Below the pieces are notes generated by a model, which had not been told where the DNA came from, ran no database searches, and worked only from the letters and a program-made list of their open reading frames with translations. This document shows positions 557-19,806 of a DNA stretch of 19,806 nucleotides, in pieces; the stretch's first letter is position 1, and each line of letters opens with the position of its first letter. Made by a program: the position numbers and the translations under genes. Origin of the DNA: a virus (Duplodnaviria > Heunggongvirae > Uroviricota > Caudoviricetes); the IMG/VR virus record IMGVR_UViG_2711768067_000013, positions 1 through 19,806 of that record; one strand, 5' to 3'.

Positions 557-698
557 AAAACACTCGATTAATCTCGTGTTAATGCCATCACCTACGACCA
601 TTACTAATTGATTGAATCTTATAGAAAAATCATCATTTTCTATGCGTCACAATCAATTTTCACATTACAAACGCTCCGACACTTTAGCCGGAGATTTT

Positions 699-1976: not shown

Positions 1977-1984
1977 ATGTAATA

Positions 1985-2018: not shown

Positions 2019-2056
2019 GATTATCTCGTTACAGAGCGTTTCATAGGCGTTTAAGG

Positions 2057-2734: not shown

Positions 2735-2781
2735 AATTTGTAATCCTTATTTAAGGGGGCTAAACAGCCCCACAGTGATGA

Positions 2782-4623: not shown

Positions 4624-4657
4624 GTTAATTGTTTCCCTGTATTATGATTGTTGTTTG

Positions 4658-4855
4658 TTATTGTTTTTTAGAACAGTAGTATGTAATTGCTTCAAAAGTG
4701 CTGCATCCAGTCTGAAACACACGCTGCCGCACATTATTTGCATCAATTTCTAAAAGGCGGCAAAGCGCCGATGTGTTTATAACTGATTCCTCGCTAATAG
4801 CTGCCAGTTCTTTTACAGATTTAAGAATTAATGCCTGTGAATTTTCTGTATTCAT
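4658..4855 (-). CDS. Hypothetical small protein (65 aa)
   Basis: ATG at 4855 with a purine-rich stretch upstream; lies between the 343-aa and 613-aa genes on the same strand. Confidence 0.4.
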   Translation of the reverse strand: MNTENSQALILKSVKELAAISEESVINTSALCRLLEIDANNVRQRVFQTGCSTFEAITYYCSKKQ

Positions 4856-5018
4856 TGGTTTTCTCTCACATATATATTTTTATTTGGTTTTGTAGACAGT
4901 AGAAAAACAAAAAGGGCAAAGAGATTCGTTACTGTATTTGCGCCTACAGGTTAGTTAATCCCTTTACCCTTAGCCCCGATTATTTTCAGACGATGGGGAA
5001 TCGTCTATTAACGCTTTA

Positions 5019-6050
5019 TTACGCAGCAGATCCGAAGATGATAGCTTGCGGAATGTTGTTTACTGGCAGATAAGATGTCTCAGTAACCACAGATGGGAAT
5101 TGGAATTCATCCTTGATTAGATATTGGTGATGTAACACGGCATCTTGACCTAACTCAGCATGACGCACACCAACGCCGCTATGAAGCTGGTAACACTGTG
5201 CCGCTTTATCCATTACCGGAACAATTGCGAAACCGTTCTCTCCGATGTGAGCAACAATCTCAGGAAACATTGACACATCAATAGCAGTGATCCCGCCAAT
5301 CTGGAAAGAGTCATAGGCTGGGTTAGAATCAACCATACGGGTAAACAGGGCCGTAGCACTCGCATCACCTGCATATTTCACCATGTCACTGATCAGCGGG
5401 TTAGATGACAAACCATCAGCAGCAGCGCCAGCAGCAAAGATAATTACACCAGTTCGCTTTGCAGCAAGAGCAGACCCCAGCTTTTCACTCTGTAAGCGCA
5501 CCGCTTTACGAATAGCAAGGAACGGGTTAACAGTAGTCGATGCAAAGTCGATAGCGGGTACCGTGGTTTTAGCCTGACCGTCGAGGAAGTCGAGATCACC
5601 TTGTCCGGCATATTCAGATTCAACTTTCAGTCCCAGCAGCGCGGTAATCAGATCCACTTCAACACGGTTTGCGTGTGAACGGTAATGAGCCTCAGAGAAA
5701 TCATTAACCGCTACCAGCATAGCATCAGAACGGTTTGGATATTGGCGGCTGTATTGTTCCAGGTCACGAGAAGTAACAGCGTTAATACTGCCGACGTGTT
5801 TCATCTGGAAAAGTTTGTTTGACCATTCCTGACGTTTAGAGGCGTTCCAGTCGCTTTGAGCGTAAGGCGAGGTTTCCCCAGCTACCTGCACAAACTGATC
5901 AATCAGGTCGGTAAGAAGAATGCTGTTTTCTGTATGATATTGCACATCGAACAGATCGAGATTAGTAATCAGGGTATTAAGTGCATTCTCATAAGCAAAT
6001 GGAGTTACTACCGCAGTATTAACACCAAAATATGTTGATAAATCATTCAT
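5019..6050 (-). CDS. 343-aa hypothetical protein, candidate major virion structural protein (capsid- or tail-tube-like); function not established
   Basis: ATG at 6050 with AAGGAAAA 8 nt upstream, and only 14 bp after the upstream 127-aa gene. A stem-loop follows the stop (4988-5006). No enzymatic motifs; the call rests on size and gene context. Confidence 0.6.
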   Translation of the reverse strand: MNDLSTYFGVNTAVVTPFAYENALNTLITNLDLFDVQYHTENSILLTDLIDQFVQVAGETSPYAQSDWNASKRQEWSNKLFQMKHVGSINAVTSRDLEQYSRQYPNRSDAMLVAVNDFSEAHYRSHANRVEVDLITALLGLKVESEYAGQGDLDFLDGQAKTTVPAIDFASTTVNPFLAIRKAVRLQSEKLGSALAAKRTGVIIFAAGAAADGLSSNPLISDMVKYAGDASATALFTRMVDSNPAYDSFQIGGITAIDVSMFPEIVAHIGENGFAIVPVMDKAAQCYQLHSGVGVRHAELGQDAVLHHQYLIKDEFQFPSVVTETSYLPVNNIPQAIIFGSAA

Positions 6051-6064
6051 TATTATTTTCCTTG

Positions 6065-6448
6065 TTAAGTCGTAGGGATCGCAAGTTCTTCATAACCAGC
6101 AATTACAAAGCCGAGAGATTGCAGTTTTGCAATAACACTTGCCTTTTCCATGCTGTTAAATTCAATCCCATCTTCAGCCAGAATAACGAAAGTAGGATGT
6201 GCAACCACTACGCTTTCCTGTCCTTCATAAGCCGGTTCAACTACTACGTGAGCAATATCAGATGCGGTTGTTGCTTTGGTGCCATCGGCTTTCAGCAAAG
6301 CCCCGACAATAAGATCGTCAGTGAGAGGTGAAGCCAGTTTGACGAGGCGATCTTGCAGCACTGGATCAGCAGCGTAAGCTACTACCTTACAGCGTGAACG
6401 GGAGTTATCCGCATTCACTGCTTTTAATTTTCCATATGGGTTAGCCAT
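6065..6448 (-). CDS. 127-aa hypothetical protein, possibly a head-decoration or tail-terminator-like partner of the 343-aa protein
   Basis: ATG at 6448 with AAAGGAAAA upstream, an RBS context almost identical to that of the 343-aa gene; 4-bp gap from the upstream 65-aa gene. Confidence 0.55.
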   Translation of the reverse strand: MANPYGKLKAVNADNSRSRCKVVAYAADPVLQDRLVKLASPLTDDLIVGALLKADGTKATTASDIAHVVVEPAYEGQESVVVAHPTFVILAEDGIEFNSMEKASVIAKLQSLGFVIAGYEELAIPTT

Positions 6449-6452
6449 AAGA

Positions 6453-6650
6453 TTATTTTCCTTTCAGTTGTTTAATTTTAGATTTAAGGGCATCAGCAAG
6501 ACTAACCGCATCAGCCGATTTAAATAATTGAGCAGTGGTAGAACGAAGACTTTCGGGAGTAACTCCCAACAGTGCGGCAACCTTAATGAGGTTTTCATCA
6601 CTAACAATCATCGTTTCCCCGTCTTTGCTGATAATCATTTCTTGTTTCAT
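6453..6650 (-). CDS. Hypothetical small protein (65 aa from the ATG at 6650; the track ORF extends to a TTG at 6692)
   Basis: ATG at 6650-6648 with AGGAA 9 nt upstream; first gene after the terminator-like hairpin at 6682-6731. Confidence 0.45.
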   Translation of the reverse strand: MKQEMIISKDGETMIVSDENLIKVAALLGVTPESLRSTTAQLFKSADAVSLADALKSKIKQLKGK

Positions 6651-6681
6651 AAATAACGTTCCTGTTAGTGCCAGACAAATA

Positions 6682-6731
6682 AAAAGCCCCAATGCCGTAA
6701 GAGGTTAATTCTGACCAGCAAAGGGGCTTTA
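6682..6731 (-). terminator. Terminator-like hairpin immediately upstream of the structural-like block (minus-strand sense)
   Basis: AAAGCCCC and GGGGCTTT arms (6682-6690 and 6724-6731) around a ~33-nt loop, followed on the minus strand by TTTTTATTT. The large loop makes this a weak call. Confidence 0.3.
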
Positions 6732-7326
6732 ACGTGCGGGCAATTACATAATTGATAAGTTAAACTATAAGAGGATTAAACATATCAGCAAATACACTTT
6801 TTAAATATACTTGATGATATGCTTAAAGGGTGAATAGATACTCCTGAAAACATGCTCTTAGGAAAACATGCGGAATCAATCAGGAATATCTATTCGGGGC
6901 GCGGTGGCCAACCGCTATCTTTCATGGTGTGGATGCACCAGTCAGATTTTAAGGAATCACTATTCCAATCTACTCACAGATTAAATTTTTAATAATGATT
7001 AACTACACCAACAGTAATCTACCGTTTCAGAAAATCGTTTTTACAACCAAAGCTTATAGATCCGCATTCTATAAAACCCGTTTTGCTATCAATATTTCCA
7101 AAGGTTATTGCACAATTCTTAGCTAAACTCTCTACTTGCGGCTAACGCTACGCAGATGATAGTTTTTTGACAACAACTTAATAGATTATTCTGTTACTAA
7201 CTTCTGTCATTAAATAAGAGTTTAATGATGTTAGTAAATAGTTATAAAATATAACTATCAGTGTAAGGCTCTTTAATGTTTTCGGACAAAATAAGGAGCT
7301 TTAGGATAAGCATAGATGAAAATAAG

Positions 7327-7364
7327 AGCGGGAAGGGCAAGGAGATAACACCTACCCGCTTTTA
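7327..7364. terminator. Bidirectional terminator-like hairpin in the 930-bp spacer
   Basis: agcgggaagg (7327-7336) pairs with cctacccgct (7351-7360) with one mismatch; T-tracts follow on both strands (TTTTAT plus; CTTATTTTC minus). It lies ~270 bp downstream of the 102-aa gene in minus sense. Confidence 0.4.
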
Positions 7365-7633
7365 TCAAAATTAAGCACAATGCCTAACAACATTCATCAA
7401 CACAACGTAGAAACAATCAACAATCAAAGAGGGAGTTATGATTATTCTAAAACTTCTTGAGGGGATGGAAGGTAATATTTGTTAGAGGTTAATGCCACTC
7501 AACCCTTGAGGCTATCACCTTCCATATGCAGGGATTTATGACAGTAGAAGGATTAACACCAGTCAAAACCTTTTTATCTACCCCTAATATCATTATATAA
7601 TGAAATTGTTATAAATGCAAATGATTTTCATTA

Positions 7634-7942
7634 TCACTTAGAAGAAATAGCACTTTTTGCTAAATCATCTACTAATTGCTGAATCTCTTCACTTGCAGCC
7701 TTTAACGTGCTGGCGCTGCTGCTGATGGTTTGAGTGCACAGCCTGGCATCGTCCTCTGATAGCTCTAAATCGCTCACCAGAGAGATAAAATCGTCAAGGC
7801 TTACATTCACCTTCATTAAGCTAATAACGCATTGAGAGAGCGTGTAATCGCATAAATCTGAATAGGCTTGATTTATTCTTGTTTGTAGTGAGATAGTCAG
7901 ATCTAAAAGTTGTTCCATTGCATTGCTAATATCTTCTTCCAT
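7634..7942 (-). CDS. Hypothetical acidic protein (102 aa)
   Basis: ATG at 7942 overlaps the stop of the upstream 67-aa gene (TAATG), suggesting translational coupling. Confidence 0.5.
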   Translation of the reverse strand: MEEDISNAMEQLLDLTISLQTRINQAYSDLCDYTLSQCVISLMKVNVSLDDFISLVSDLELSEDDARLCTQTISSSASTLKAASEEIQQLVDDLAKSAISSK

Positions 7943-8145
7943 TATGCGGCTTCTCCTTGTAATGCATCATTAATCATATTCAATACGATGTTAAAAGGTG
8001 TCTTGAGCGTCAGCACTTCATCACGATAACGCTCTAATGCTTCGTAGTCTTCTGTTTCTTTTGCCAGTCGGATTAACTCAGCATAGTTTTTTGCATCAGA
8101 CAGGATCATCTGAAATAATTGTGTTTCCTGTATATGGTCGATCAT
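7942..8145 (-). CDS. Hypothetical protein (67 aa)
   Basis: ATG at 8145 with AAGGAA 6 nt upstream. Confidence 0.5.
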   Translation of the reverse strand: MIDHIQETQLFQMILSDAKNYAELIRLAKETEDYEALERYRDEVLTLKTPFNIVLNMINDALQGEAA

Positions 8146-8162
8146 TGTTGTTCCTTTTATTT

Positions 8163-8549
8163 TTAGTTTGAACGTTTGTTAGATGCGAGAGTGTCGATCA
8201 GGTGCTGCATCAGATCTGTTTCTGTAACGCCGCCTACCTGATTGTTGAAACTATTAAAACCGATATAGTGCCTGTAGCTGGTAAAATTTAACAGCTGCCA
8301 TTTCTTTAATGTGCCAGGTTCTATAATCGTTGTCTTTCTTGTTCTGGGTTTGAAATACACACCATCACCCATTGATTGAATAATTTCTAATTCTTCGTTT
8401 GTAAGTGGTGGGCTGTTAGATTCTAAAATGAAGATTATCTCTTCCCCTGGAATTTCGTTATTGGTGTGTGTCGGTGGACGTTGTCTTGTTGAATTGAAGT
8501 TACTGTTTTTTTCAATACGTTTTAAGTTGTTCTTTTTCTTTCTTCCCAT
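8163..8549 (-). CDS. Hypothetical protein (128 aa), basic N-terminus
   Basis: ATG at 8549 with AGAGGGA upstream. Confidence 0.5.
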   Translation of the reverse strand: MGRKKKNNLKRIEKNSNFNSTRQRPPTHTNNEIPGEEIIFILESNSPPLTNEELEIIQSMGDGVYFKPRTRKTTIIEPGTLKKWQLLNFTSYRHYIGFNSFNNQVGGVTETDLMQHLIDTLASNKRSN

Positions 8550-8645
8550 TTTCCCTCTTTTTATGTGGATTATAAAAACTGAATGCCATAGTTACGATGA
8601 ATATCGCCATAAATGCATTTGCCATATGTATTGCCCGATCTGTTG

Positions 8646-8903
8646 TTATTGATTGTTTGTGATAAACAATTCAAAATCTTTGTTTAATTTCAAAAGACGA
8701 AATGTAGTGTGGTTAATCCCTTCATAATCCAGCACACCGAACGATGTAAAATGATTTACGTGTTGTGCGCTGTAGCCGCCTAAACTACAAAAGCTAACCA
8801 CTGTCGGTGGTGAAAACTCTATTTCCAAAATAGCTTTTAAAATGTTGTATCCGCTTTCAGTTATTTCAATAGTTTTGTTTCCTATAGTGATGTTATAAGT
8901 CAT
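8646..8903 (-). CDS. Hypothetical protein (85 aa)
   Basis: ATG at 8903 with AAGGAG 6 nt upstream. Confidence 0.5.
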   Translation of the reverse strand: MTYNITIGNKTIEITESGYNILKAILEIEFSPPTVVSFCSLGGYSAQHVNHFTSFGVLDYEGINHTTFRLLKLNKDFELFITNNQ

Positions 8904-8912
8904 TTATTCTCC

Positions 8913-9587
8913 TTAGAATGGTATTGAATCGTATATTTCACTTTTTTCTCTTAGAGATATTATCAGATCGTGAAAAGCCTGTTTCTCAAGATAGATATTC
9001 TTTGAATCTAATGCTCGTTTTACAAAATCTTCTGTTTCTTCGTGCGGTGGCTTCTTGTTATCAAGGGAAAGAAGCCAGTTAAAAATCTTTTCCGGGAACT
9101 CTGATTCCTGTATTTCTTCTTCAACGATGATTTCTGAAACATTCAATATTTCATTAGATTCGTTTTCTTTCTCAGAAGGATCAGGTAGTGATGACTCTCT
9201 AGGGGGAGTAATATGTGCATCTGTGAGAGGTAGCGCACGTAATTTTAATGGACGTTTTGGGATTCGTTCTCCGACCTCTTCTAAAAGACCGATTTTAATC
9301 ATAAGACCAATCAATTCATTAACTGTCTTACGGCTACAGCCACAAACTTTACTTAACTTCGTTTGTGTTTCAAAACATATCCCCCCTGATTTCTCCCAAT
9401 CTGAAACATAGCAATATAATTTTTGCATTTCTGCACTAAACTTCGCTTTTCCATCCTCAATATTTGAGGAGTAGATGAATTCAATCTCACAAAAGTAGTG
9501 TGGTATATTCAAAGTTCGGTCTTTAATTTCTCCTGTTTGTTGATCAACATACTGGTATTTTTCACGAATCAATTTAATTTTAGACAT
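8913..9587 (-). CDS. 224-aa putative DNA-binding protein (winged-helix-like segment SRKTVNELIGLMIKIGLLEE); candidate regulator or replication-initiator-like protein
   Basis: Track ORF 8913-9644 starts at GTG; the ATG at 9587 has a strong AAGGAG 8 nt upstream. The C-terminal half is acidic. Function is inferred from the motif only. Confidence 0.5.
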   Translation of the reverse strand: MSKIKLIREKYQYVDQQTGEIKDRTLNIPHYFCEIEFIYSSNIEDGKAKFSAEMQKLYCYVSDWEKSGGICFETQTKLSKVCGCSRKTVNELIGLMIKIGLLEEVGERIPKRPLKLRALPLTDAHITPPRESSLPDPSEKENESNEILNVSEIIVEEEIQESEFPEKIFNWLLSLDNKKPPHEETEDFVKRALDSKNIYLEKQAFHDLIISLREKSEIYDSIPF

Positions 9588-9640
9588 TAGAATTATCTCC
9601 TTATAAATCACGCTTAATGCGCTACTAAAGTGAATGAGGA

Positions 9641-9808
9641 TCACTTACCCTTTTTTTGTTTGATGTTCTCTGCTGCTTCAGTAATGATTTCTAACATCAA
9701 ATCACTGACCATAATTTGCCTTTTCTTGGCTTCAGCAAATAAAATCTTGAAAATTTCAGGGTCAACGTGTAGGTAAGTGCGTGGAATTGGTTTCTTGGTT
9801 TCGCTCAT
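9641..9808 (-). CDS. 55-aa ribbon-helix-helix-like small protein (MSETKKPIPRTYLHVDPEIFKILFAEAKKRQIMVSDLMLEIITEAAENIKQKKGK); absent from the ORF track because it is under 60 aa
   Basis: Hand-translated: ATG at 9808-9806 with AGGAGAAGGAG upstream, TGA at 9643-9641. A predicted strand followed by two helices fits Arc/CopG-type repressors. Confidence 0.45.
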   Translation of the reverse strand: MSETKKPIPRTYLHVDPEIFKILFAEAKKRQIMVSDLMLEIITEAAENIKQKKGK

Positions 9809-9829
9809 AGTTTTCTCCTTCTCCTGTTA

Positions 9830-10012
9830 TTATTCTTTCTCTGCTCCTGCCTTACGCAGTTCATCAATAATTTTTAGTGCATCGTCAAAACATTTTTCAC
9901 GCTCTGGATAACCACAGCGTCGCGCTGTGTTCCTGTTCATCCTTACTTTAAAACGATTGATCTCACCACGTTTCCAGGCTTCAACTACATCCTGGGGAGT
10001 GAAATACTTCAT
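9830..10012 (-). CDS. Hypothetical protein (60 aa), first gene of the minus-strand array
   Basis: ATG at 10012 with AGGAGG 7 nt upstream; 21 bp before the RHH-like ORF. Confidence 0.5.
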   Translation of the reverse strand: MKYFTPQDVVEAWKRGEINRFKVRMNRNTARRCGYPEREKCFDDALKIIDELRKAGAEKE

Positions 10013-10134
10013 TAATTAACCTCCTATTCTATTTGGTTAAAAGAAAAAACACCTTGCAAGCCTTGTTGGGCTTCAAAGTGCGGTGCATTGGTTTAATTAC
10101 TTAGAGGATAAGAATGTTTTCTGTCCCTAATATT

Positions 10135-10163
10135 ACTTTACCACGACTAAAAGCTTTTGTCAA
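10135..10163 (-). promoter_or_regulatory. Candidate sigma70 promoter for the minus-strand array (TTGACA, 17-bp spacer, TAAAGT)
   Basis: Minus-strand TTGACA is the reverse complement of 10158-10163; TAAAGT is the reverse complement of 10135-10140. Motif match only. Confidence 0.3.
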
Positions 10164-10324
10164 CCCCTATCCATAAAAATATTGATCATTTTCAGTGTGT
10201 TATAATTTTTCTTAGCAATTCGTGCTCTTACGGGTGCTCCTATTCTTCCTTATTCTCTAAAACGCTCTAAAACGCCCTCTGACGAGGTTTTGATAAATAC
10301 AATACATTCACTTATGTAGAGGCT

Positions 10325-10780
10325 GTTTAGCTCGCCAGAGGCTTATTTAAGGGGCTTATTTTGTATTTGTTAGGTATATGGGAAGATGATGATAGATAAA
10401 ATCTAATTTCAGACATCTTATAAAATACCTGTAAAGCTCCTCAGAAGCTCTATAACGAGCTAATCTATTACCGCTAAGTGTTTCCCTGCCTTATATACGT
10501 TTAGCTCGCCTACGGCTTGATTTAAGCGGTAGAATCTTATTTAACCTTCAACTACTAAAACCATTCTTTCTTTTTTGTTTGTTGTTGGTTGTTGTCTGTG
10601 TCTATGTGCTAACATCGCTAACGCGTAGCACACAAGGTTATTGCACTCGTCAGAGTATTGCACAATAGATTTTCTCTTAAATAGATTGATGATCGTTAGA
10701 TTGGCGTAAGCCTCATCAATGGAACTATTGAAGCGCACAGCGCAAGACTATTTAGCCTTACGCAAGCCGTAGGCTATTTG
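10325..10780. repeat. Repeat family in the noncoding region: two direct ~28-31-bp copies (10325-10352, 10499-10529) and one inverted, itself palindromic copy (10749-10780)
   Basis: Copy 1 gtttagctcgccagaggcttatttaagg; copy 2 gtttagctcgcctacggcttgatttaagcgg; copy 3 reverse complement contains GCCTACGGCTTG. A TTG/TGT-rich tract (about 10565-10610) and several CTAAC pentamers lie between copies 2 and 3. Confidence 0.5.
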
Positions 10781-10961
10781 CACATAGTAGATTACATATT
10801 CGTTGTGAGCGGCATTAGCGAACATATATCTACTAACTAACATCAACAAACAAAAACTATGTGTTATGACAAGCAGTCTAACGACTAACACTCTAACTTG
10901 TGCAAGGTTCTGGCGAATGCCAATAGATTAAGGGATAGTCAAAGACTCCCTAACGGGTATA

Positions 10962-11045
10962 CCTATAATTATTCTTATAAAGATAAAAAAGAATTATATT
11001 ATATAGTTTAATAGTTAGTTTTATTATTAGTATTATAGATGTTAG
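10962..11045. other. Very AT-rich tract next to the iteron-like array; candidate DNA-unwinding element
   Basis: About 85 bp of almost pure A/T directly upstream of the palindrome array. Confidence 0.35.
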
Positions 11046-11053
11046 TCTTATTG

Positions 11054-11224
11054 TGTAACCTTTCGTTACAACCAATCATCTGCCGATGTAACGTATCGTT
11101 ACTACCGATGTGTAATATCGTTACATTCAATAATTAGTCTATGTAACGAATCGTTACTACAAAATTTCTTACAGAGAGTATTTCAGATAGCTGAATGTAA
11201 CCCATCGTTACATCCATCGTTACA
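11054..11224. repeat. Iteron-like array: five palindromes with a TGTAAC / GTTACA core (11054-11070, 11087-11103, 11111-11125, 11142-11158, 11196-11212) plus an extra half-site (11216-11224); two units form a tandem 22-bp repeat (11083-11126)
   Basis: Read directly, for example TGTAACctttcGTTACA, GTAACGtatCGTTAC, GTAACGaatCGTTAC and TGTAACccatcGTTACA. Could be a replication origin, a recombinase res-like site or a repressor operator. Confidence 0.6.
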
Positions 11225-11661
11225 TCCATTTATCACATAACATCTGTGCAATGATCTTCTAAAAGTGTTTCTTACTATCAAAAATTAAACATCTAAAACA
11301 GGCTTAAATTCAATGTAATTGATGATTAATCCCTGTGTAATTCCTACGTAAAAATTCAATGAAAAGTAGCTTAAAAGTGCAATTCTTACTTTCTTCACTT
11401 TTACATCACTTTCGCAAAGCCTTGTGTAATGCGGCATATAGCGCATCACTGCAAAATTGTTGCTCAATAAACGTTCTATCATTTGTCGAACAAGTTTTCT
11501 TTAATGCAACAAAAAATTATTTTTTCAAAATAAACACACCATTTAATAGCTTGCTAATTTTACCAAAACGTAACTACATGCTTCTCATGCAAGACGTGTA
11601 GTGATAAAGCAGGCTAAATCACCACACTAAAAACCTTCGAATTTCGTAGTGAAAAAAGTCC

Positions 11662-11691
11662 TTTACACACCTAATCAACACGATCAATAAT
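11662..11691 (+). promoter_or_regulatory. Candidate promoter for the serine recombinase (TTTACA, 18-bp spacer, AATAAT)
   Basis: Motif match ~35 bp upstream of the ATG at 11727. Confidence 0.3.
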
Positions 11692-11726
11692 CACTACACA
11701 CAAATCAACACAGAAGGAAAATGAAA

Positions 11727-12278
11727 ATGGCTAATATTGGATACATTAGGGTATCGACTGTGCAACAAAACACAGACCGTCAATTAGCTGGAGTAACTCT
11801 TGATAAAGTCTTTGAAGATAAAGCGTCAGGCAAGAACACTCAGCGCCCACAGTTTGAGGCAATGATGAACTATGTGCGGGAGGGTGACGTGTTACACGTC
11901 CATAGTATTGATCGCCTTTGTCGTAATACAGCCGACCTTCTGGCAACGGTTGAGCAATTAACAGAGCGCGGCGTGTCTGTGCATTTCCATAAAGAAGACT
12001 TTAAGACAGGGAAGAACTCTCCCGCAGGGAATATGATGCTCACAGTGCTTGCAGCAGTGGCACAAATGGAACGTGAAATGATGCTTGAGCGGCAACGTGA
12101 AGGGATCGCCGCAGCTAAGGCCGCTGGGCGTATAGCAAAACGTGGTAATGGAAAAGCAATTGATCGAGCAGGAATTGCTGCCGCTCTCGCGAATGGTGGA
12201 TCAATTCGGAGCGTAGCAAAAGATTTCAGTGTCAGCACACAGACGGTGCAACGTATCAAGAAAGAGCAGGAAGCGTAA
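11727..12278 (+). CDS. Small serine recombinase (resolvase/invertase family, ~183 aa)
   Basis: N-terminus MANIGYIRVSTVQQNTDRQ carries the resolvase catalytic-Ser motif; a C-terminal helix-turn-helix-like region (SIRSVAKDFSVSTQTVQRIKK) follows. The ATG at 11727 is better spaced from the AAGGA than the ATG at 11721. Confidence 0.85.
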   Translation: MANIGYIRVSTVQQNTDRQLAGVTLDKVFEDKASGKNTQRPQFEAMMNYVREGDVLHVHSIDRLCRNTADLLATVEQLTERGVSVHFHKEDFKTGKNSPAGNMMLTVLAAVAQMEREMMLERQREGIAAAKAAGRIAKRGNGKAIDRAGIAAALANGGSIRSVAKDFSVSTQTVQRIKKEQEA

Positions 12279-12618
12279 TGCCTCCTGATATTTGAGAATT
12301 GTCGCTGCGTGGACCTGACGCCGCTGATCTTCTCGTTAAGCGATGATCACGTATGCGCCGATTTCAGAGAAAAAGACAGTAACTGAACTCACTATGAAGG
12401 CTAAACGCATCTTTACACTTGATGAAAACGTTCAAAAAACAACCTAACCCCAAAATTCAACAAATTGCAACACATTGTTTTTAAAAGAAAATTAAATCTA
12501 CATCAAATATTGGTTGACGTAGATTGAGGTGAATAGTAGACTATTAGGGTAAATTACCACCCTTGCAACATCATTTAATGCATGTTCTAATCTTCCTATC
12601 GTAAAACCGGAGGAAGTT

Positions 12619-12777
12619 ATGCATTTACTTTCAAAACATCTTCACACTATTCACTTTCTCGTTATTGATGTATTCGTTGTGGCTATTAGTTACCGCATTT
12701 GCATCGCTTCCAGTGAAGAGATGGACGCTGTTGCAATTATTGCTCAAGCAATGGCGATGTTAACTAAACGACTTTAA
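12619..12777 (+). CDS. 52-aa small hydrophobic protein (MHLLSKHLHTIHFLVIDVFVVAISYRICIASSEEMDAVAIIAQAMAMLTKRL); not in the ORF track
   Basis: ATG at 12619 with GGAGGA 5 nt upstream; contains a predicted membrane-like helix. Confidence 0.4.
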   Translation: MHLLSKHLHTIHFLVIDVFVVAISYRICIASSEEMDAVAIIAQAMAMLTKRL

Positions 12778-12843
12778 TAATTTCACTATCAGGTGCATAA
12801 ACACATCTTTGATCGCTGGATGTGTTATGCGCCTACTGGTGGT

Positions 12844-12996
12844 TCAATCCTTAAGCCATTTCAACTCACTAAGGAGTTTTCTTTCTTCGTTCTCTCGCTG
12901 TTTACGCTCTAGCCAGGCTTTTCCCTCTGGCGTAGACAGGAACTTACGAGCGTGAATCTTGCGGTTATTACGTTTTATAGCTGCAATGTTTTTCAT
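12844..12996 (-). CDS. 50-aa highly basic small protein (MKNIAAIKRNNRKIHARKFLSTPEGKAWLERKQRENEERKLLSELKWLKD); not in the ORF track
   Basis: Hand-translated: ATG at 12996-12994 with GAGG upstream, TGA at 12846-12844. Convergent with the 52-aa ORF. Confidence 0.4.
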   Translation of the reverse strand: MKNIAAIKRNNRKIHARKFLSTPEGKAWLERKQRENEERKLLSELKWLKD

Positions 12997-13600
12997 CGTG
13001 TGCCTCTGTATTCATATGAAAATTAACAAGTTACATACTACACAGGGAGACTACGCATAAAACACAATACAAGTAAAGATACATTTTCAAGACAATAGGA
13101 GCCATAAAGCGCCTTTGATGGTTATACCAAAAAATAAGCGCCGTAGGCGTATCCACTAAAAGGGCTTTTTCACAAAAGCTATGAAGTCTTAGCAGTTCTT
13201 CTCTTATCAGGCACCCGTTGTACTCCGGTGGACGAAACCGTGCTAGAGCTTGATTCTTTCCCGATCAAGTTAGGTTTTGAAGAGGTGGGCTTTGATCCAC
13301 TATTGCACTTAAAACTCTTCCCATCATTTAGCCTGTTTATCCTCTGCAACGTCTCACGACGTGTAGCATCATTGGACACCGCGCCAGGTGTGGAACATCT
13401 TGCTAAGAGTTTTGGTAGAAGGTTTAGAGACGGTGGCACGTCTTCCAGCTTCAAAGGAACTTGTTACGAGGTTGAGCCTGGGAACTACTCGCCCATACGT
13501 GTTACACTACCAAAGCCCATAACAACGTATAGGCGTTTGTAAGTGATAACAGAAGATACAATTTCTTAGAGAAGTTAAGCTAAGTTATTGATTTTCTTAA

Positions 13601-13646
13601 TGGTGCCGATAATAGGAGTCGAACCTACGACCTTCGCATTACGAAT
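13601..13646 (-). tRNA. Truncated tRNA-Thr (CGU anticodon) 3' fragment, 46 nt (anticodon loop through T-arm, acceptor 3' strand and CCA); att-site remnant, not a functional gene
   Basis: Reverse complement reads ATTCGTAATGCGAAGGTCGTAGGTTCGACTCCTATTATCGGCACCA, with the GGTTCGA T-loop and CCA end; sequence diverges from tRNA after 13646. As I recall it, this matches the 3' part of E. coli thrW. Confidence 0.7.
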
Positions 13647-13951
13647 TATAAGAATCCGCTTCTAATTCAAAGCATTACCCCATCAACACTGCGCTCACAC
13701 GTCCCACCACATCAAAACATGTAAAGCCTTGCAAGCCATTGCGAGGCCTTATGTGTCTCAGTTTTGTCCCACCTTGTATTACGACTTACATAGCCAATGA
13801 AGATAAACGTGACGACAAACGGCGCAGCAGTCTTCTTTTCCTTCATACTTTCCCCACCCAGCATGCATACCTTTATGCCATAACTGAAGTTTATGTCTGT
13901 TATGAGCGAAAAGCAGACATTACACTAAATTATTTAGGTTTACTTTTATCA

Positions 13952-14824
13952 TTACATTTCTAATGCTTTTTCTCTGCTAATTGATCCTTCACCATTGCAG
14001 GTTCTGCAATCTAATTTTATATTCCTGCAGTCAGGACAAGTAAATTTTTCATAATTAGAAAGATTCACCTTTGCAGCAATATATCTTTTTACGGATCCCA
14101 TTCCATTACAGATCGGACAATCTTCTCCCGCTAAACTGCCTTTTCCATTACATAAAGGGCAAGTTACAGTGGATATCACTTCATTTTCATTTTCATAAAT
14201 AAAATTGTTGAAATTTTGGGCGTTTATTGTGCTTAGTTGAACTTTTTCAATTTTTTTTATGTGATGTTCAAAATACTTTTTAATTGCCTTCTTAAGATCC
14301 TCTTTAGACGATTTCCATTGTTCTGGTGAGATCCTAATCGATTGAAATCCTTCGTTACTAGTTATTACTGCATCACGCTTGTAAGTAGACTTAATTTTAC
14401 TTTCCACATAATGAGCTATGTGGCCATCATACTCGATGCCAATAGCAGCAATCTCAACCAAATCTTGACCAATCCATCTATTTAGTCTAAGGACAAGGTC
14501 TATTGCCCAAGGCTGGGCTTTTGGGTTTATATTGCCAACCTTATACTGAGGCTCGATATAAACAATATGTCCGTTTGGGAATTGACCTTTCAGAGTTATT
14601 CGTCGTGGTGAATTTTGAAAACTATCGATTTCCAATGGACTAAACTGAGATATGAGGCCGGCAATTACCTCTATCTCAGCCTGAGATGTTTTTTCCACTC
14701 CTTGTAAACTAATAAGACCGATAGCTACTTGACGGTTAGTGGCTGGCTCAATCCTTTTAAATAGTTTCTTCTGATTATTACTAAAATTATTTTTGATAAC
14801 TTCAAGTGTTTCATCTAGTTCCAT
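13952..14824 (-). CDS. PD-(D/E)xK-type nuclease-like domain fused to a C-terminal DnaJ-type zinc finger (four CxxCxGxG-like repeats)
   Basis: Track ORF starts at GTG 14833; an ATG lies at 14824. Candidate nuclease motif D...IGIEYDGHIAHY (DUF559/Vsr-like). C-terminus has CPLCNGKGS, CPICNGMGS, CPDCRN and CRTCNGEGS. AT-rich gene. Confidence 0.65.
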   Translation of the reverse strand: MELDETLEVIKNNFSNNQKKLFKRIEPATNRQVAIGLISLQGVEKTSQAEIEVIAGLISQFSPLEIDSFQNSPRRITLKGQFPNGHIVYIEPQYKVGNINPKAQPWAIDLVLRLNRWIGQDLVEIAAIGIEYDGHIAHYVESKIKSTYKRDAVITSNEGFQSIRISPEQWKSSKEDLKKAIKKYFEHHIKKIEKVQLSTINAQNFNNFIYENENEVISTVTCPLCNGKGSLAGEDCPICNGMGSVKRYIAAKVNLSNYEKFTCPDCRNIKLDCRTCNGEGSISREKALEM

Positions 14825-14928
14825 CTCACCCACTCTATAAACTGATTATCCATATAAACTACATTATCATTTTTAACTGCTCAACATAGATTAACATAGC
14901 GCGATGCTAACAGTGTCAACTCCTGGCA

Positions 14929-14950
14929 CAGGGCTGTTGTTGCAGCCCTG
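14929..14950. other. Perfect 8-bp palindrome with 6-nt spacer (CAGGGCTG ttgttg CAGCCCTG) between the recombinase stop and the nuclease-ZnF gene
   Basis: Read directly; no flanking T-tract on either strand, so probably not a simple terminator. Confidence 0.5.
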
Positions 14951-14956
14951 ACAACC

Positions 14957-15559
14957 TTAGACTTCAATCGATTCAGAGATCTCTAACACATCATCTACTT
15001 CAATACCCAGATAACGGACTGTGCTTTCCAGTTTCTTATGGCCCAACAGAAGTTGGATCACCCGAAGATTCTTGGTTTTCTTGTAGATCAGGTAAGGTTT
15101 TGTTCTTCTCATGGAATGAGTGCTGTAAAGCGAATCTTCGAGACCAAGCTTTTCTACCCACCCATGAAAAATTCGGTTGTATTGCCGGGTAGATATGAGC
15201 TGATTAGTTCCGACCAGAAACCGAAACAAGAAGTCTTTACTATGCAAATTGCCAAGCATTATCAATGCAGCAACAGCTTCTCTTGTCCCTTTGGTTATCT
15301 CAAACTGCACAGGGCTACCGGTTTTCTGTTGCAGCACCGTAGCTCTGCTTGAAGCAGAGCTACCATATGCAACATCAGATACTTTGAGTTTGACCAGATC
15401 ACAGCCTCGTAGCTTACTGTCCAGGGCCATATCGAACTGAGCTAAATCGCGCGTTTTATCTTCCAGTTCAAGCCGGATTCGGATCCCCCAGATATGAGAT
15501 ATCTGAAGTGGTCTTTTTTGGCCGATGATACGGTCTTTGTTCCACGGTGACGTGTTCAT
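14957..15559 (-). CDS. Short tyrosine recombinase (~200 aa, catalytic domain only, FimB/FimE-like size)
   Basis: Track ORF starts at TTG 15613; the ATG at 15559 has AGGAGA upstream. Catalytic signatures: LRGCDL (Arg), HSMRRT (His-x-x-Arg), LLGH, and TVRYL (Tyr). No N-terminal arm-binding domain. Confidence 0.8.
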   Translation of the reverse strand: MNTSPWNKDRIIGQKRPLQISHIWGIRIRLELEDKTRDLAQFDMALDSKLRGCDLVKLKVSDVAYGSSASSRATVLQQKTGSPVQFEITKGTREAVAALIMLGNLHSKDFLFRFLVGTNQLISTRQYNRIFHGWVEKLGLEDSLYSTHSMRRTKPYLIYKKTKNLRVIQLLLGHKKLESTVRYLGIEVDDVLEISESIEV

Positions 15560-15595
15560 ACTCAAATCTCCTGCAATGTGGGAGATTTGAGTATG
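15557..15595. promoter_or_regulatory. Perfect 15-bp inverted repeat with 9-bp spacer (CATACTCAAATCTCC tgcaatgtg GGAGATTTGAGTATG) covering the recombinase Shine-Dalgarno and start codon
   Basis: Arms 15557-15571 and 15581-15595 are exact reverse complements. In the minus-strand mRNA the hairpin would sequester GGAG and AUG. Confidence 0.5.
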
Positions 15596-15765
15596 GTTGT
15601 CCCTTATGAGCAAATCGCAGACGTAACATCAAGTTCATAGCTACCCTGGAGCACCTTATTATCCTGTATAACGATAAGTTGGGAAGCCAGTGGCCTCACA
15701 GTGTCCCCAAGATGGTGGTGTCTCTGCACCAAAGATGCGCTAGTTCAAATGTTAGTAAATATAAT

Positions 15766-16677
15766 TTATATGTAATCAGGTAGTGAATTCAAAGCCATCA
15801 CTCTTTCTCTTTCTTTTTCTGTCATTTCTCTCATAACAATTTGAGATAGCGCTAATGTTATCTCCTTTGTTTTATTGAAGGCTTCTTTGGTATATGTTTT
15901 CCTTCCATACTCAAGTTCATTAAATGTCCCCATAATCCATTTGAGATAGAATAATGGGATGGCTAGATCACTTATATCCTGCCATCTCGTAATCGCTTTA
16001 TATTCATTCCAAAAATAATCCTCAAAATGCTTATCACAATCACCTTTACACGCATAATAAACCGCTATCACCTCATTTGGTTTGTCATCGTGTATGATCT
16101 CTGCATTGCACACAATGCCATCATAATTTTCTTCATGATGGTTTTCTATTAAGTCCTTTCCACAACGATCACATTTTATAGGTAAGTACTTATCAAAAAT
16201 CAAATGCTTGGGTTTTATTTTTTTATAGCTCTCAGGAAAGTATCTAAGGAGTAGTTTTGAGTAACCAATTCTGACTAAGTGATTTTCAATTAATTTACCA
16301 TCAAAGAATCGAAAGTCCTTTATTTTTCCATTCTCTTTTAATTGCGTCATTCTTGAATTTAAACCACTACTTGGCAGTGTTGAGTAAAATCCAATAAATC
16401 CGTCGGCATTGAATCCATCAATACGTTCTTGTATATTAATCTCATCCTTTTCTGAAACTGATTTTTTACTTGTTGCATAATGTTTACAGCTAACAAGCCA
16501 ACGAAATTTATATTTATTTAACTGACCTTGCAATTGCTCTGTGATTAAAAGATCTTTACCTCCATCTGCACCTCTATCTGGCGCGGATTCAATATAAAAG
16601 CCAAGTTCTTCAAGAAAATCACGGGCAAATGACTCCCAGGCTTCACCGTCACTATCAATTTCAGTAAAGTTAATCAT
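15766..16677 (-). CDS. Mrr-like (type IV restriction endonuclease catalytic fold) N-terminal domain fused to a Cys/His-rich C-terminal domain (303 aa)
   Basis: ATG at 16677 with GGGAG 9 nt upstream. N-terminal motifs RGADGGKDLLI and WLVSCKHY fit the Mrr_cat pattern. The C-terminus has CDRCGKD, CNAEI and CKGDCDKH. AT-rich gene. Confidence 0.65.
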   Translation of the reverse strand: MINFTEIDSDGEAWESFARDFLEELGFYIESAPDRGADGGKDLLITEQLQGQLNKYKFRWLVSCKHYATSKKSVSEKDEINIQERIDGFNADGFIGFYSTLPSSGLNSRMTQLKENGKIKDFRFFDGKLIENHLVRIGYSKLLLRYFPESYKKIKPKHLIFDKYLPIKCDRCGKDLIENHHEENYDGIVCNAEIIHDDKPNEVIAVYYACKGDCDKHFEDYFWNEYKAITRWQDISDLAIPLFYLKWIMGTFNELEYGRKTYTKEAFNKTKEITLALSQIVMREMTEKERERVMALNSLPDYI

Positions 16678-16925
16678 TTGTTAACTCCCAAGCGTTGAGA
16701 TATTTTTATATCTGTATTGTGGGCTTATTATAAGCGAGTGTAATTATAATATCATACTAACAGACACAACTTCCGCTTCTGGTACATAGCAGACCAGAGA
16801 CACTGGCGTAAAGCCATGGAGGATCGGTGGGAGGAGGTAAAAATCCTCTCATGCAAAAAATACGCAAAATCGATAACAGTTGGAAATCATTCAATACTCG
16901 CACTATCGGAAGTTCACCAGCCAGT

Positions 16926-16958
16926 CGTAGCACGTTCTTGCATACGACGTGGCTACGG
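16926..16958. repeat. Degenerate second copy of the pin terminator hairpin (direct repeat of 17947-17982), flanking the GIY-YIG gene on the left
   Basis: cgtagcacgttcttgcatacgacgtggctacgg aligns with ccgcagcacgatcttcttgcatacgacgtgctacgg, with small indels. Confidence 0.5.
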
Positions 16959-17054
16959 GTTTCGAGACCGCTCCAATCATCAAACGAAACATAAAATTAA
17001 TTCACATTATGAGGAAAAGTATCTTTTTTATACTATGTAAATTCAAAGGCTTAG

Positions 17055-17924
<870 letters not shown>

Positions 17925-17940
17925 GTCTTTAAGTGATAAG

Positions 17941-17982
17941 CATAAACCGCAGCACGATCTTCTTGCATACGACGTGCTACGG
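17941..17982 (-). terminator. Rho-independent terminator of the pin gene
   Basis: On the minus strand CCGTAGCACG pairs with CGTGCTGCGG (one mismatch) around a 16-nt loop, followed by TTTATG; begins 2 nt after the pin stop. Confidence 0.5.
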
Positions 17983-17984
17983 TT

Positions 17985-18546
17985 TCATTTATCTCCGACC
18001 GGAAACTTCTTATACAGTGTCGATATACCAACATCATAGATGATCGCCACCTTCTGGCGAGGAACGCCTGATGCAATTAATCGTCCGGCCTGCTCCCATT
18101 GTTCTGGTGTAAGTTTGGGACGACGTCCACCAATTCGTCCCTGTGCGCGAGCAGCTTCCAGTCCAGCTTTTGTTCGTTCAACAATCAGTTCACGCTCCAT
18201 TTCAGCCAGGGCACCCATCACATGAAAGAAAAAGCGCCCCATTGGGGTACTGGTATCAATTGAATCCGTCAGACTACGAAAGTTGATGCCTCGTTCGCGC
18301 AACTCCTCCACCAGCACGACAAGATGCCGCATACTGCGCCCCCAGTCTGTCCAGCTTCCAGACAACCAGCGTGTCTCCTGCCGATAGTGTCCTGAGCAGC
18401 TTTTTCAGCCCCGGTCTGTCGGACTTGGTGCCACTGATTTTATCCTCAAAAATCCGCTCACATCCCGCACAGTTCAGTGCATTGCGTTGCAAATCGGTGT
18501 TCTGGTCATTTGTTGACACGCGTACATAGCCAATAAGCATGATCAT
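17985..18546 (-). pseudogene. pin: Pin/Gin/Hin-family serine DNA invertase, disrupted by a +1 frameshift in a C5 run (18339-18343, plus strand)
   Basis: N-terminal ORF (18274-18546) reads MLIGYVRVSTNDQNTDLQ…WKLDRLG, then goes out of frame. C-terminal ORF (17985-18365) reads …GRSMRHLVVLVEELRERGINFRSLTDSIDTSTPMGRFFFHVMGALAEMERE…. Removing one G from the GGGGG run restores WKLDRLGRSMRHL. May be a sequencing error. Confidence 0.7.
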
Positions 18547-18567
18547 CCCCCTGAATAAAAACCGGAG

Positions 18568-19074
18568 ATGATGCCAGTTAGCCGTTATCTCTGCATTTTC
18601 ATAAACGTTGGTTTGGGAGAAGGTTCGGCGTTACCCGTTGGTGTGCCTGTTCCGTGGCCTGCAGCCACTCCGCCAACAGGCTGGCTGAAATGCAATGGTG
18701 CGGCTTTTTCTGCTGAAGAATACCCAGAACTGGCAAAGGCTTACCCGACAAATAAATTGCCTGATTTACGTGGTGAGTTTATGCGTGGCTGGGATGATGG
18801 AAGAGGCGTTGATAGTGGCAGGGGGATTCTCACTGCGCAATCTCATGGTATGCCGTCTATTTCAGGAACGTTTAATGGTCTTTTTGCTGTTAAACAAACA
18901 AATGGTTTAGGTGGTGTTTCTGTAGCAAAAAGTAAAAATGCTGAAACTTTATCTACTTCATCTGGATCAGGTTCCGTGTTTGATTACACGTTTAATGTCA
19001 GCGGTTCGACTCCGGTATCACCAGAACTTCGTCCGCGTAATATTGCATTTAACTATATCGTGAGGGCCGCATAA
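18568..19074 (+). CDS. Tail-fibre protein C-terminal (variable, receptor-binding) segment; probably a silent cassette lacking its constant 5' part in this orientation
   Basis: Translation PVGVPVPWPAATPPTGWLKCNGAAFSAEEYPELAKAYPTNKLPDLRGEFMRGWDDGRGVDSGRG is typical of tail-fibre C-termini. The first ~15 codons read through the crossover site and are probably not native N-terminus. Confidence 0.65.
   Translation: MMPVSRYLCIFINVGLGEGSALPVGVPVPWPAATPPTGWLKCNGAAFSAEEYPELAKAYPTNKLPDLRGEFMRGWDDGRGVDSGRGILTAQSHGMPSISGTFNGLFAVKQTNGLGGVSVAKSKNAETLSTSSGSGSVFDYTFNVSGSTPVSPELRPRNIAFNYIVRAA
18597..18622. other. hix/gix/pix-like 26-bp crossover site for the DNA invertase
   Basis: ttttcataaacgttggtttgggagaa; reverse complement TTCTCCCAAACCAACGTTTATGAAAA has imperfect dyad symmetry resembling invertase sites. 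Lies 50 bp upstream of pin, at the start of the tail-fibre cassette. Confidence 0.5.
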
Positions 19075-19676
19075 TGAATAATGCAGAATTAAATAGTGAA
19101 TTGATTGCTACTGCGGCAGGGAATATTACCGTTTATAACTATGATTGTGAAACACGAGAATATATTTCCACATCAACTGAATATCTTGCTGTGGGTGTCG
19201 GTATCCCGGCATGTTCCTGTCTGGATACACCAGGTATACATAAGGCGGGTTATGCAATATGCCGCTCTGTGGATTTAAATTCATGGGAATATGTGCCAGA
19301 CCATCGAGGTGAAATTGTCTATAGCACCGAAACGGGAGATACCAAAGAAATCACAGTGCCAGGCGACTATCCCGAAAATACAACCACTATCGCCCCGTTA
19401 ACGCCATACGATAAATGGGATGGTGAGAAATGGGTGACCGATATTGAGGCACAGCATAGCGCCGCAGTAGACGCGGCAGAAGCGCATCGCCAATCGCGGA
19501 TTGATGCTGCAATGGCTTCCATCAGTCTGATTCAGCTGAAATTGCAGGCCGGACGTAAACTGACGCAGGCAGAAACAACCCGGCTTAACGCTGTGCTGGA
19601 TTACATTGACGCGGTGGTGGCAACAGATACCAGCACCGCGCCGGATGTCATCTGGCCTGAACTACCGGAGGCGTAG
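19074..19676 (+). CDS. tfa: Tail-fibre assembly protein (Tfa/U-like)
   Basis: ATG overlaps the upstream stop (TAATG). C-terminus …TDTSTAPDVIWPELPEA is typical of Tfa chaperones. Confidence 0.8.
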   Translation: MNNAELNSELIATAAGNITVYNYDCETREYISTSTEYLAVGVGIPACSCLDTPGIHKAGYAICRSVDLNSWEYVPDHRGEIVYSTETGDTKEITVPGDYPENTTTIAPLTPYDKWDGEKWVTDIEAQHSAAVDAAEAHRQSRIDAAMASISLIQLKLQAGRKLTQAETTRLNAVLDYIDAVVATDTSTAPDVIWPELPEA

Positions 19677-19806
19677 GCCATTCAATATCTGGAGCACTGG
19701 AAATATCGACCATTTCCAGTGCATCCAGATAATCCAGCCACAAATTATATTGTGCCAGTTCCTCACCTTTCAGACGACCGATAGCTGCTTTACCAGGCCA
19801 TTGCTT
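19648..19806 (-). CDS. 3' end of a second, oppositely oriented tail-fibre assembly gene (start lies beyond the window)
   Basis: Minus-strand translation ends …KQWPGKAAIGRLKGEELAQYNLWLDYLDALEMVDISSAPDIEWPTPPVVQAR, sharing the APD(V/I)xWP motif with the plus-strand Tfa; the 3' ends overlap by ~29 bp. Confidence 0.65.
   Translation of the reverse strand, partial: KQWPGKAAIGRLKGEELAQYNLWLDYLDALEMVDISSAPDIEWPTPPVVQAR

Follow-up and report, generated by a model that had tools for sequence, protein, structure and literature searches.

Two unpaired small genes at the edges of an empty cargo slot, and a predicted structured RNA beside one of them, in a tRNA-Thr island of Escherichia coli

Positions 1 to 19,806 of the IMG/VR virus record IMGVR_UViG_2711768067_000013 (the whole stretch analysed, hereafter the window) contain two small convergent open reading frames (ORFs): ORF52, encoding a hydrophobic peptide of 52 amino acids (aa), and ORF50, encoding a basic protein of 50 aa. 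Comparison of the window with related loci showed that ORF52 and ORF50 are the constant flanks of a cargo slot, which is empty in the window. By the same comparison, the two genes are not a functional pair but members of different modules: ORF52 accompanies a small serine recombinase, and ORF50 accompanies a conserved noncoding region of several hundred nucleotides (nt), predicted to be a structured RNA.

Sequence matching showed that the window DNA is E. coli chromosome and that positions ~600-13650 are an integrative island of ~13 kb, located in the 3' end of the tRNA-Thr gene thrW, beside proA. For strain 2017.04.03CC, the match to the window stops within the annotated tRNA-Thr gene adjoining proA. 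No complete tRNA was found in the window by ARAGORN. A tyrosine integrase (612-1976) is located at the island end opposite ORF50. From the inside outwards, the right end of the island is composed of the core, the small serine recombinase, ORF52, the cargo slot, ORF50, the structured RNA and the attachment site (Table 1); the ORF50 start and the attachment-site copy are separated by 606 nt (12996 versus 13602).

The content of the slot was analyzed in 80 unique contexts, in which 62 protein clusters were found within 1.5 kb 3' of ORF50. Two Klebsiella loci (L104 and L105) showed a clean swap of cargo beginning 15 nt past the ORF50 stop codon. The cargo facing ORF50 homologues included a type IIG restriction-modification (RM) enzyme, Abi_C, an nSTAND/AAA_16 ATPase, a helix-turn-helix protein with DUF3944, DUF2971 and a YecR lipoprotein. 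Pfam searches of the cargo yielded two further type II RM systems (a C5-methyltransferase with RE_Eco29kI, and RE_XcyI), an HNH nuclease, a Dam methylase and DUF1643. Many cargo proteins had no annotation, and much of the cargo had no defence assignment. The first cargo gene was co-directional with ORF50 in 44 of 76 contexts (median gap 166 nt). The far side of the slot was occupied either by a serine resolvase of ~185 aa or by a tyrosine recombinase of ~185-195 aa with a partner of 65-80 aa. In one island (L007) the cargo, a YecR gene and another gene, was located beyond ORF52, which identifies ORF52 as part of the inner flank. Integron-like cassettes were also considered, but no recombination site shared by the cargo boundaries was found.

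Since the slot is empty in the window, the two edge genes face each other across a hairpin of 60 nt, located in the 66-nt gap between the stop codons. Predicted folding of the gap was strong on both strands: -29.4 kcal/mol (z -6.7) for the plus strand and -22.2 kcal/mol (z -5.3) for the minus strand. The hairpin is kept in island L008, which carries a diverged ORF52 allele (allele C, see below), and is not followed by a U-tract on either strand. The fold suggests that it is likely a shared bidirectional 3' end, or terminator, for both transcripts.

An earlier, sequence-only reading of this region had proposed that the two ORFs encode a toxin and its regulator, or a small phage membrane protein and a DNA-binding partner. 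The distribution of the genes does not agree with either pairing. In Klebsiella, Enterobacter and Raoultella, unrelated genes stand opposite the ORF50 homologues, and no ORF52-like ORF is present; conversely, E. coli tRNA-Gly islands (L007 and L009) contain the recombinase together with ORF52 (alleles B and D) and have no ORF50. Among 5426 complete E. coli genomes, the RNA-ORF50 region was found in 566, the recombinase-ORF52 region in 351 and the exact ORF52-ORF50 pair (coverage of at least 80%) in 170. Carriers include E. coli O26:H11 str. 11368 (RNA and ORF50) and O104:H4 2009EL-2050 (ORF52-ORF50 region). ORF52 was intact in 27 of the 29 contexts holding the recombinase, and of 131 unique contexts with the RNA, 123 had the ORF50 gene 3' of it.

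Type II toxin-antitoxin genes are recognised by co-transcription and joint inheritance, whereas ORF52 and ORF50 are convergent and separable. Adjacency in 170 complete genomes, and the combination of a hydrophobic with a basic product, are what a membrane effector and its protein regulator would show. This explanation is nevertheless very unlikely, given that the genes are not co-transcribed, that each is widespread without the other, that ORF50 is conserved in genera without ORF52 and that unrelated cargo fills the gap between the edges in other islands. The description as phage proteins is not supported either, as both were absent from 50,697 GenBank phage records.

A rare arrangement was observed in L169 and L245 (metagenome) and in L009: the RNA is kept, ORF50 is deleted, and ORF52 allele D and the recombinase follow directly. 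In L009 only a fragment of the RNA is present (nhmmer E value 4e-4).

At the level of the individual ORFs the sequence-only reading was accurate. Both have the stated coordinates and ATG starts, and both are preceded by Shine-Dalgarno sequences (GGAGG, 5 nt 5' of the ORF52 ATG; GAGG, 6 nt 5' of the ORF50 ATG). The hydrophobic, membrane-like character of ORF52 was confirmed (grand average of hydropathicity 0.97; a single predicted helix with a core of transmembrane grade), as was the basic character of ORF50, which is helical and has 15 lysine and arginine versus 7 aspartate and glutamate residues among 50. The ORFs were indeed missing from the ORF track used for that reading; in RefSeq, by contrast, the Prokaryotic Genome Annotation Pipeline (PGAP) has an entry for each as a hypothetical protein (WP_000550450.1 for ORF52, WP_000788776.1 for ORF50). 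As 42 ORFs of at least 20 aa overlap positions 11500-14000, ORF size alone is no evidence of a gene, and conservation was used as the evidence. The conservation analysis which that reading had called for showed strong purifying selection on ORF50 and an ORF52 frame that stays open in four diverged alleles.

ORF50 is clearly a real gene of a narrow enterobacterial family, as judged from its homologues. A search of 5.8 billion proteins yielded 57 of them, including proteins of Klebsiella, Enterobacter and Raoultella, with a near-invariant block, KRNNRKIHARKFL-x-TPEGK-x-WL. When 1.84 billion representatives were searched exhaustively with HMMER, 42 matches were significant; the best 38 were no longer than 96 aa, and no fusion to a larger domain was seen among them, while the four weakest (E value above 4e-4) were long repetitive proteins with short stretches aligned. 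When ORF50 was compared with seven homologues from five other groups of loci, the proportion of synonymous differences (pS) was 0.77-1.06, which is saturated, and that of nonsynonymous differences (pN) was 0.13-0.24. In both shifted frames pS was lower than pN. The alignment also showed TTTAC(T/A) and TA(G/A)(T/C)CT blocks at fixed spacing 5' of a conserved GGAGG Shine-Dalgarno sequence.

The AlphaFold2 (AF2) model of ORF50 has two helices (4-20 and 23-49) joined by a TPEG turn, and no strands (predicted local distance difference test score, pLDDT, 91). Nothing usable was obtained from Pfam, PHROGs, NCBIfam or PADLOC, and Foldseek found no structural neighbours in the PDB. A sequence profile search of the PDB aligned the KRNNRKIHARKF stretch with ribosomal protein bL34 at a non-significant E value of 0.13. 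On the basis of the model and its charge, ORF50 would be a nucleic-acid-binding protein, with RNA as the most likely ligand.

A second group of ORF50 proteins, 57-65% identical to that of the window, was found in E. coli contigs of 14-15 kb (L090-L092 and L099-L101). In this group the gene is located between TMP_3 (tape-measure) and Dit_like genes, the basic motif is kept, and unrelated noncoding DNA of 380-520 nt stands upstream in place of the structured RNA. Each such contig may be a complete small element.

The position of ORF50 in the window raises the possibility that it is a recombination directionality factor or excision regulator, which after circularisation of the island would lie across attP from the integrase. 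A small basic protein near the attachment site, at the end opposite the integrase, would suit this role, and in KplE1 torI and intS are located at opposite ends. The two-helix hairpin, however, has neither the winged helix nor the beta-strands of Xis, AlpA and TorI, no Pfam match was obtained, and the homologues of the second group are located between tail-like genes and not beside an attachment site. We therefore give this role a low probability.

For ORF52 the evidence comes from alleles. Comparison of the DNA of related E. coli islands showed that alleles B, C and D occupy the position of the window allele (A), ~340 nt 3' of the same recombinase; the recombinase is present in thrW islands and in tRNA-Gly islands, and an ORF52 allele follows it in each. 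Allele B has 55 aa (60% identity to A), allele C 52 aa (35%) and allele D 64 aa (21%). The start position, the Shine-Dalgarno sequence and the promoter-like site are kept in all four, the last with the consensus TTGAC(G/A)-N17-TA(G/A)(A/G)CT. The ratio of nonsynonymous to synonymous substitution rates (dN/dS) was 0.50 between A and B, as compared with 1.5 and 0.86 in the shifted frames, and 0.36 between B and C. Differences between A and C were distributed 22/17/36 over first, second and third codon positions, an excess at the third. So many divergent alleles are consistent with diversifying pressure on ORF52. From these comparisons, ORF52 is probably a real gene, and one that evolves fast.

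The best 17-residue Kyte-Doolittle window of ORF52 scored 2.26 (residues 13-29), and the AF2 model is one long helix (pLDDT 78). A search with the single sequence returned near-identical proteins only, and a profile search with the four alleles found none outside E. coli. No ORF52-like ORF was present 3' of the recombinase relatives in Rahnella, Enterobacter, Buttiauxella, Citrobacter and Raoultella. No match was obtained in Pfam, NCBIfam or PADLOC; in PHROG there was one weak match of unknown function (E value 0.046). Its hydrophobicity points to a membrane-acting accessory peptide, which could be an exclusion peptide or a toxic one.

Alternatively, ORF52 may be untranslated, and a conserved region 3' of the recombinase, with a role in regulation or recombination, would contain the open frame as a by-product. 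The restriction of ORF52 to E. coli, the lack of PGAP annotation for alleles B, C and D, and the higher conservation of the upstream region (12279-12545) than of the ORF itself between A and B would all be accounted for in this way. A by-product would not be expected, however, to stay open at the same length through ~48% nucleotide divergence, to show a third-position excess and a dN/dS below 1 only in the reading frame, to keep its Shine-Dalgarno sequence and promoter-like site, or to be intact in nearly all contexts with the recombinase. This alternative seems unlikely.

A second alternative concerns the way in which ORF52 is controlled. It could be a membrane toxin of the type I kind, repressed by antisense RNA which would arise by read-through of the ORF50 mRNA or from a promoter in the ORF52 3' end. 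ORF52 is small and hydrophobic, the genes are convergent, and a promoter-like site with a score of 10/12 is present on the minus strand (12763-12736); an antisense RNA running from this site to the hairpin and U-run at 12525-12495 would be ~240 nt long and would span the Shine-Dalgarno sequence and the start codon. On the other hand, ORF52 matches no toxin family, allele C preserves the site poorly (its hexamers match at 3/6 and 4/6), the very stable intergenic hairpin should limit read-through, and ORF52 alleles exist without ORF50. We regard antisense control of a toxin as an explanation of limited probability.

The region between the recombinase and ORF52 (12279-12545) is noncoding and near-identical between alleles A and B. 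It holds a 34-aa ORF (12343-12447) and a 12-7-12 dyad (Table 1), and may contain a target site of the recombinase or a regulatory RNA. Flipping of a segment with ORF52 or a promoter by the recombinase was considered and rejected: neither the dyad nor its half-site has a second copy in the window, the inverted repeats around the gene are weak (74%), and a 146-aa cargo gene which seemed to have opposite orientations in L104 and L105 turned out to represent different cargo and not an inversion. In Raoultella, the related recombinase points the other way with respect to ORF50 than it does in the window; no direct evidence of inversion was found.

The ~600 nt between the attachment site and ORF50 contain no PGAP or RefSeq gene. 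The RNA region located there is conserved between E. coli and Klebsiella, even in a tRNA-Leu island. Searching with an invariant 25-nt pattern from its core retrieved 39 IMG/VR and 118 metagenome stretches, and where the hosts were named they were Enterobacteriaceae only (E. coli, Klebsiella, Enterobacter and Raoultella). In the window the RNA is present as a single copy (nhmmer, 13413-13137, minus strand).

The RNAalifold model, obtained from an alignment of 36 sequences, has 93 pairs in 18 helices, which form a multi-helix junction with a long-range closing helix (13408/13187) and GNRA-capped hairpins. Standard pairing was found in 95.0% of the cells, as compared with 33-40% when the partners were slid. 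Changes on both sides occurred in 37 of the 93 pairs; slid partners gave 7-16 and shuffles 20.2+-2.6, with 0 of 500 shuffles reaching the observed count, a statistic which for related sequences is not a probability. The covariation score was 0.230, versus 0.043-0.055 for slid partners, and in a trimmed and independently realigned set 24 of 54 pairs were compensatory. Compensation was observed in the closing helix (CUUAGCA/UGCUAAG versus CUUGUCA/UGACAAG), in a further helix (CCGGAU/AUCCGG versus CCAGC/GCUGG versus CUUGAU/AUCAAG) and in a GNRA-capped hairpin (UCCCU-GUGA-AGGGA versus GCUUUU-GUGA-AAAAGC). G.U pairs outnumbered A.C pairs (233 versus 64), which places the RNA on the ORF50 strand. 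The 3' GC hairpin and U-run are followed by a second hairpin and then by the conserved ORF50 promoter-like site.

These results support well the identification of the conserved stretch as a structured RNA, which is apparently undescribed. No Rfam 15 match was obtained at the gathering thresholds for the whole window, and only chance-level matches at E values up to 10 for positions 12400-13720. The RNA was also absent from the GenBank phage records, and a limited literature search found nothing relevant on the RNA, the protein accessions or satellites with tail genes. A coding reading of the region was rejected: its ORFs of 91 and 104 aa are broken in the 97.5%-identical L008, and the homologues differ by 1-nt insertions and deletions.

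The E. coli thrW-type copies carry an insertion of 42 nt (13274-13315, minus strand) which is absent from the Klebsiella and Enterobacter copies, and three further RNAs (L177, L231 and L236) carry a different inserted hairpin of ~35 nt, GNRA-capped. From the alignment, the architecture seems to tolerate modular insertions.

The same structure could in principle be formed by single-stranded DNA, as an origin of transfer (oriT), a single-strand initiation (ssi) site or a packaging signal acting in mobilisation of the island. Compensatory hairpins and G.T wobbles would suit folded single-stranded DNA as well, the island has an integrase, a replication-initiator-like protein and iterons, and no promoter for an RNA was found. 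Known oriT and ssi elements, however, are short; the region in question has 18 helices with a long-range closing helix and several GNRA loops, carries its 3' GC hairpin and U-run on the same strand, and has a fixed orientation relative to ORF50 and the tRNA. A DNA element of this kind is improbable.

The tRNA gene, the RNA and ORF50 have the same orientation, and in the alignment nothing in the interval from the tRNA to the RNA read convincingly as a terminator or a promoter. As the RNA is located directly 3' of the tRNA, transcription by read-through from the tRNA is a reasonable inference.

ORF50 may also be compared with arginine-rich RNA-binding antiterminators such as lambda N. Acting on the GNRA hairpins of the RNA, it would allow transcription starting at the tRNA or the RNA to continue past the terminator into ORF50 and any co-directional cargo. 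The protein is very basic, a covarying GNRA-loop hairpin of ~5 bp (13178-13165) is located just 5' of the hairpin and U-run, and the first cargo gene is co-directional in more than half of the contexts examined. However, no homology to N proteins was found in Pfam, PHROG or NCBIfam, ORF50 is located 3' of the terminator that it would have to overcome, and the homologues of the second group have no such RNA. To our knowledge, 50 aa leave no room for the NusA- and RNA polymerase-binding regions of N. Antitermination by ORF50 is thus quite unlikely.

The explanation that we favour, and consider probable on the sequence evidence, is that ORF52 and ORF50 are real but unpaired genes at the edges of an empty cargo slot, ORF50 forming a module with the RNA by the attachment site. 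The RNA would be transcribed by read-through from the host tRNA promoter. ORF50, a putative nucleic-acid-binding helical hairpin with its own promoter-like site, would act together with the RNA upstream of it, the two forming the control module that this island family has next to the attachment site. ORF52 would be expressed from its own sigma-70-type promoter near the recombinase and would act at the membrane, and the gap hairpin would end both transcripts.

Several observations weigh against this explanation. ORF52 has no relatives beyond E. coli, and its selection signal is moderate and derived from few alleles. The conserved C-terminus of alleles A and C adjoins a recombination breakpoint at ~12733, so that this similarity may in part reflect the shared ancestry of the flank and not selection. 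The homologues of the second ORF50 group keep the basic motif without the RNA, which weakens the RNA as an obligatory partner of ORF50 and suggests that it is perhaps not the only target. The structure model was obtained from the same alignment as the pair counts, and the aligned sequences are related. Most of the RNA sequences were fetched by a pattern from their own core, which makes the 25-nt invariance partly circular; earlier, however, this stretch had shown no variation in 11 loci that came independently from protein look-ups. No promoter was identified for the RNA, and its 3' terminator is weak in the window allele (z -1.2).

A further step would be to see in 13102-13530 (minus strand) a new class of large structured RNA, confined to tRNA-integrating enterobacterial islands and transcribed after the host tRNA, which forms a ribonucleoprotein with ORF50 that exerts control or sensing for the neighbouring cargo (defence) slot. 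We put this forward tentatively, as a possibility and not as the expected outcome.

Table 1. Features at the right end of the island, from the inner flank to the attachment site (positions of the window).
Feature	Position	Strand	Basis
Small serine recombinase (resolvase/invertase type), inner flank	11721-12278	+	Pfam Resolvase, E value 1e-38; PHROG 'DNA invertase', E value 2e-62
12-7-12 dyad overlapping the ORF52 promoter-like site; terminator-like hairpin and U-run on the minus strand	12495-12525	-	Fold -12.5 kcal/mol, z -5.75
ORF52 promoter-like site, TTGACG-N17-TAGACT	12514-12542	+	Promoter scan; spacing kept in four alleles
ORF52 (WP_000550450.1), predicted single-pass membrane peptide, allele A of four	12619-12777	+	ORF, PGAP, allele conservation
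Strong hairpin in the gap between the stop codons	12783-12842	both	Fold energies
ORF50 (WP_000788776.1), basic two-helix protein, outer flank of the cargo slot	12844-12996	-	Homologues, selection, AF2
ORF50 promoter-like site, TTTACT-N18-TAGTCT	13048-13077	-	Conservation in alignment; not reported by consensus scan
Conserved structured noncoding RNA, predicted	13102-13530	-	Covariation core 13481->13102
GC hairpin and U-run, 3' end of the RNA	~13156-13126	-	Structure model
5' hairpin of the RNA, thrW-type alleles	~13527-13487	-	Outside the covariation core
tRNA-Thr (thrW) 3' 46 nt, attachment-site copy, right end of the island	13602-13647	-	Match boundary in strain 2017.04.03CC

Other genes of the island were noted. 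It encodes two tail-related proteins, one Dit-like or tail-fibre-like (2057-2734) and one tape-measure-like (2782-4623), as well as a replication-initiator-like protein (8913-9644). Beside these and the integrase, no capsid or packaging genes were recognised, and the island may be a satellite-like or tail-interfering element. A gene-poor stretch of ~980 nt located 5' of the serine recombinase contains, at 11054-11234, at least 4-6 copies of the palindromic unit TGTAACnnnTCGTTACA, with spacings that are multiples of 11 bp (33, 55, 54). In layout the array resembles the iterons of a replication origin, or a set of operators, on which the replication-initiator-like protein would act.

Beyond the 46-nt tRNA remnant, a second element stands in tandem at the same tRNA-Thr site (13650-19806). 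It carries the known defence gene PD-T4-3 (17100-17924; PADLOC E value 3e-140), a Mrr-like nuclease (15766-16677), a truncated integrase (14957-15613) and tail-collar genes, together with a 293-aa protein (13952-14833) that partly matches PDC-M01B and has a zinc domain of the DnaJ type (CXXCXGXG).

Taken alone, the two small ORFs are ordinary, being RefSeq hypothetical proteins which form no toxin-antitoxin pair. Their interest is that they mark a cargo slot in a widespread family of tRNA-integrating islands. As this slot holds RM and other defence genes in other strains and genera, its conserved edges may be used as anchors for cargo mining. The most notable result is the covarying RNA of ~400 nt beside ORF50, absent from Rfam; an undescribed large structured RNA would be unexpected in bacteria studied so heavily. 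If the proposed RNA-protein control module exists, ~10% of the complete E. coli genomes would carry it, as would clinical Klebsiella, and the RNA with its candidate 50-aa partner would offer a tractable E. coli system for studying the function of the large RNAs of mobile elements.

Among known systems, the slot is closest in layout to the P2/P4 hotspots, in which variable and often anti-phage cargo is located between conserved core genes of prophages and satellites (Rousset et al. 2022, PMC9122126). Like these, it has fixed flanks (ORF50 and the small recombinase) and sharply bounded variable content, including RM systems, Abi_C, a STAND ATPase and an HNH nuclease, in an element integrated at a tRNA gene. 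Unlike them, the element is not P2- or P4-like, ORF50 and the RNA are absent from GenBank phages, and the outer flank consists of a 50-aa protein and a large structured RNA. We know of no description of such a flank for P2/P4 hotspots.

ORF52 resembles the toxins of type I systems (hok/sok, ldr/rdl, tisB/istR) in being a single hydrophobic helix of ~50 aa with its own promoter-like site and a possible antisense geometry, but it falls outside the known toxin families (Hok/Gef, Ldr, TisB and others). ORF50 is similar in size and charge to bL34 and lambda N, and its basic N-terminal helix, together with the GNRA-capped hairpin at 13178-13165, gives no more than a resemblance to lambda N; its similarity to bL34 is non-significant, and its two-helix hairpin has no PDB neighbour. 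The RNA matches none of the Rfam covariance models, including ROOL, GOLLD, HEARO and STAXI. In being several hundred nt long, rich in covarying helices and carried by a mobile element beside a tRNA gene, it resembles ROOL and GOLLD; it differs from both in its smaller size (~380-430 nt), in its occurrence here, where hosts were named, in Enterobacteriaceae only, and in its tight linkage to a specific small protein gene.

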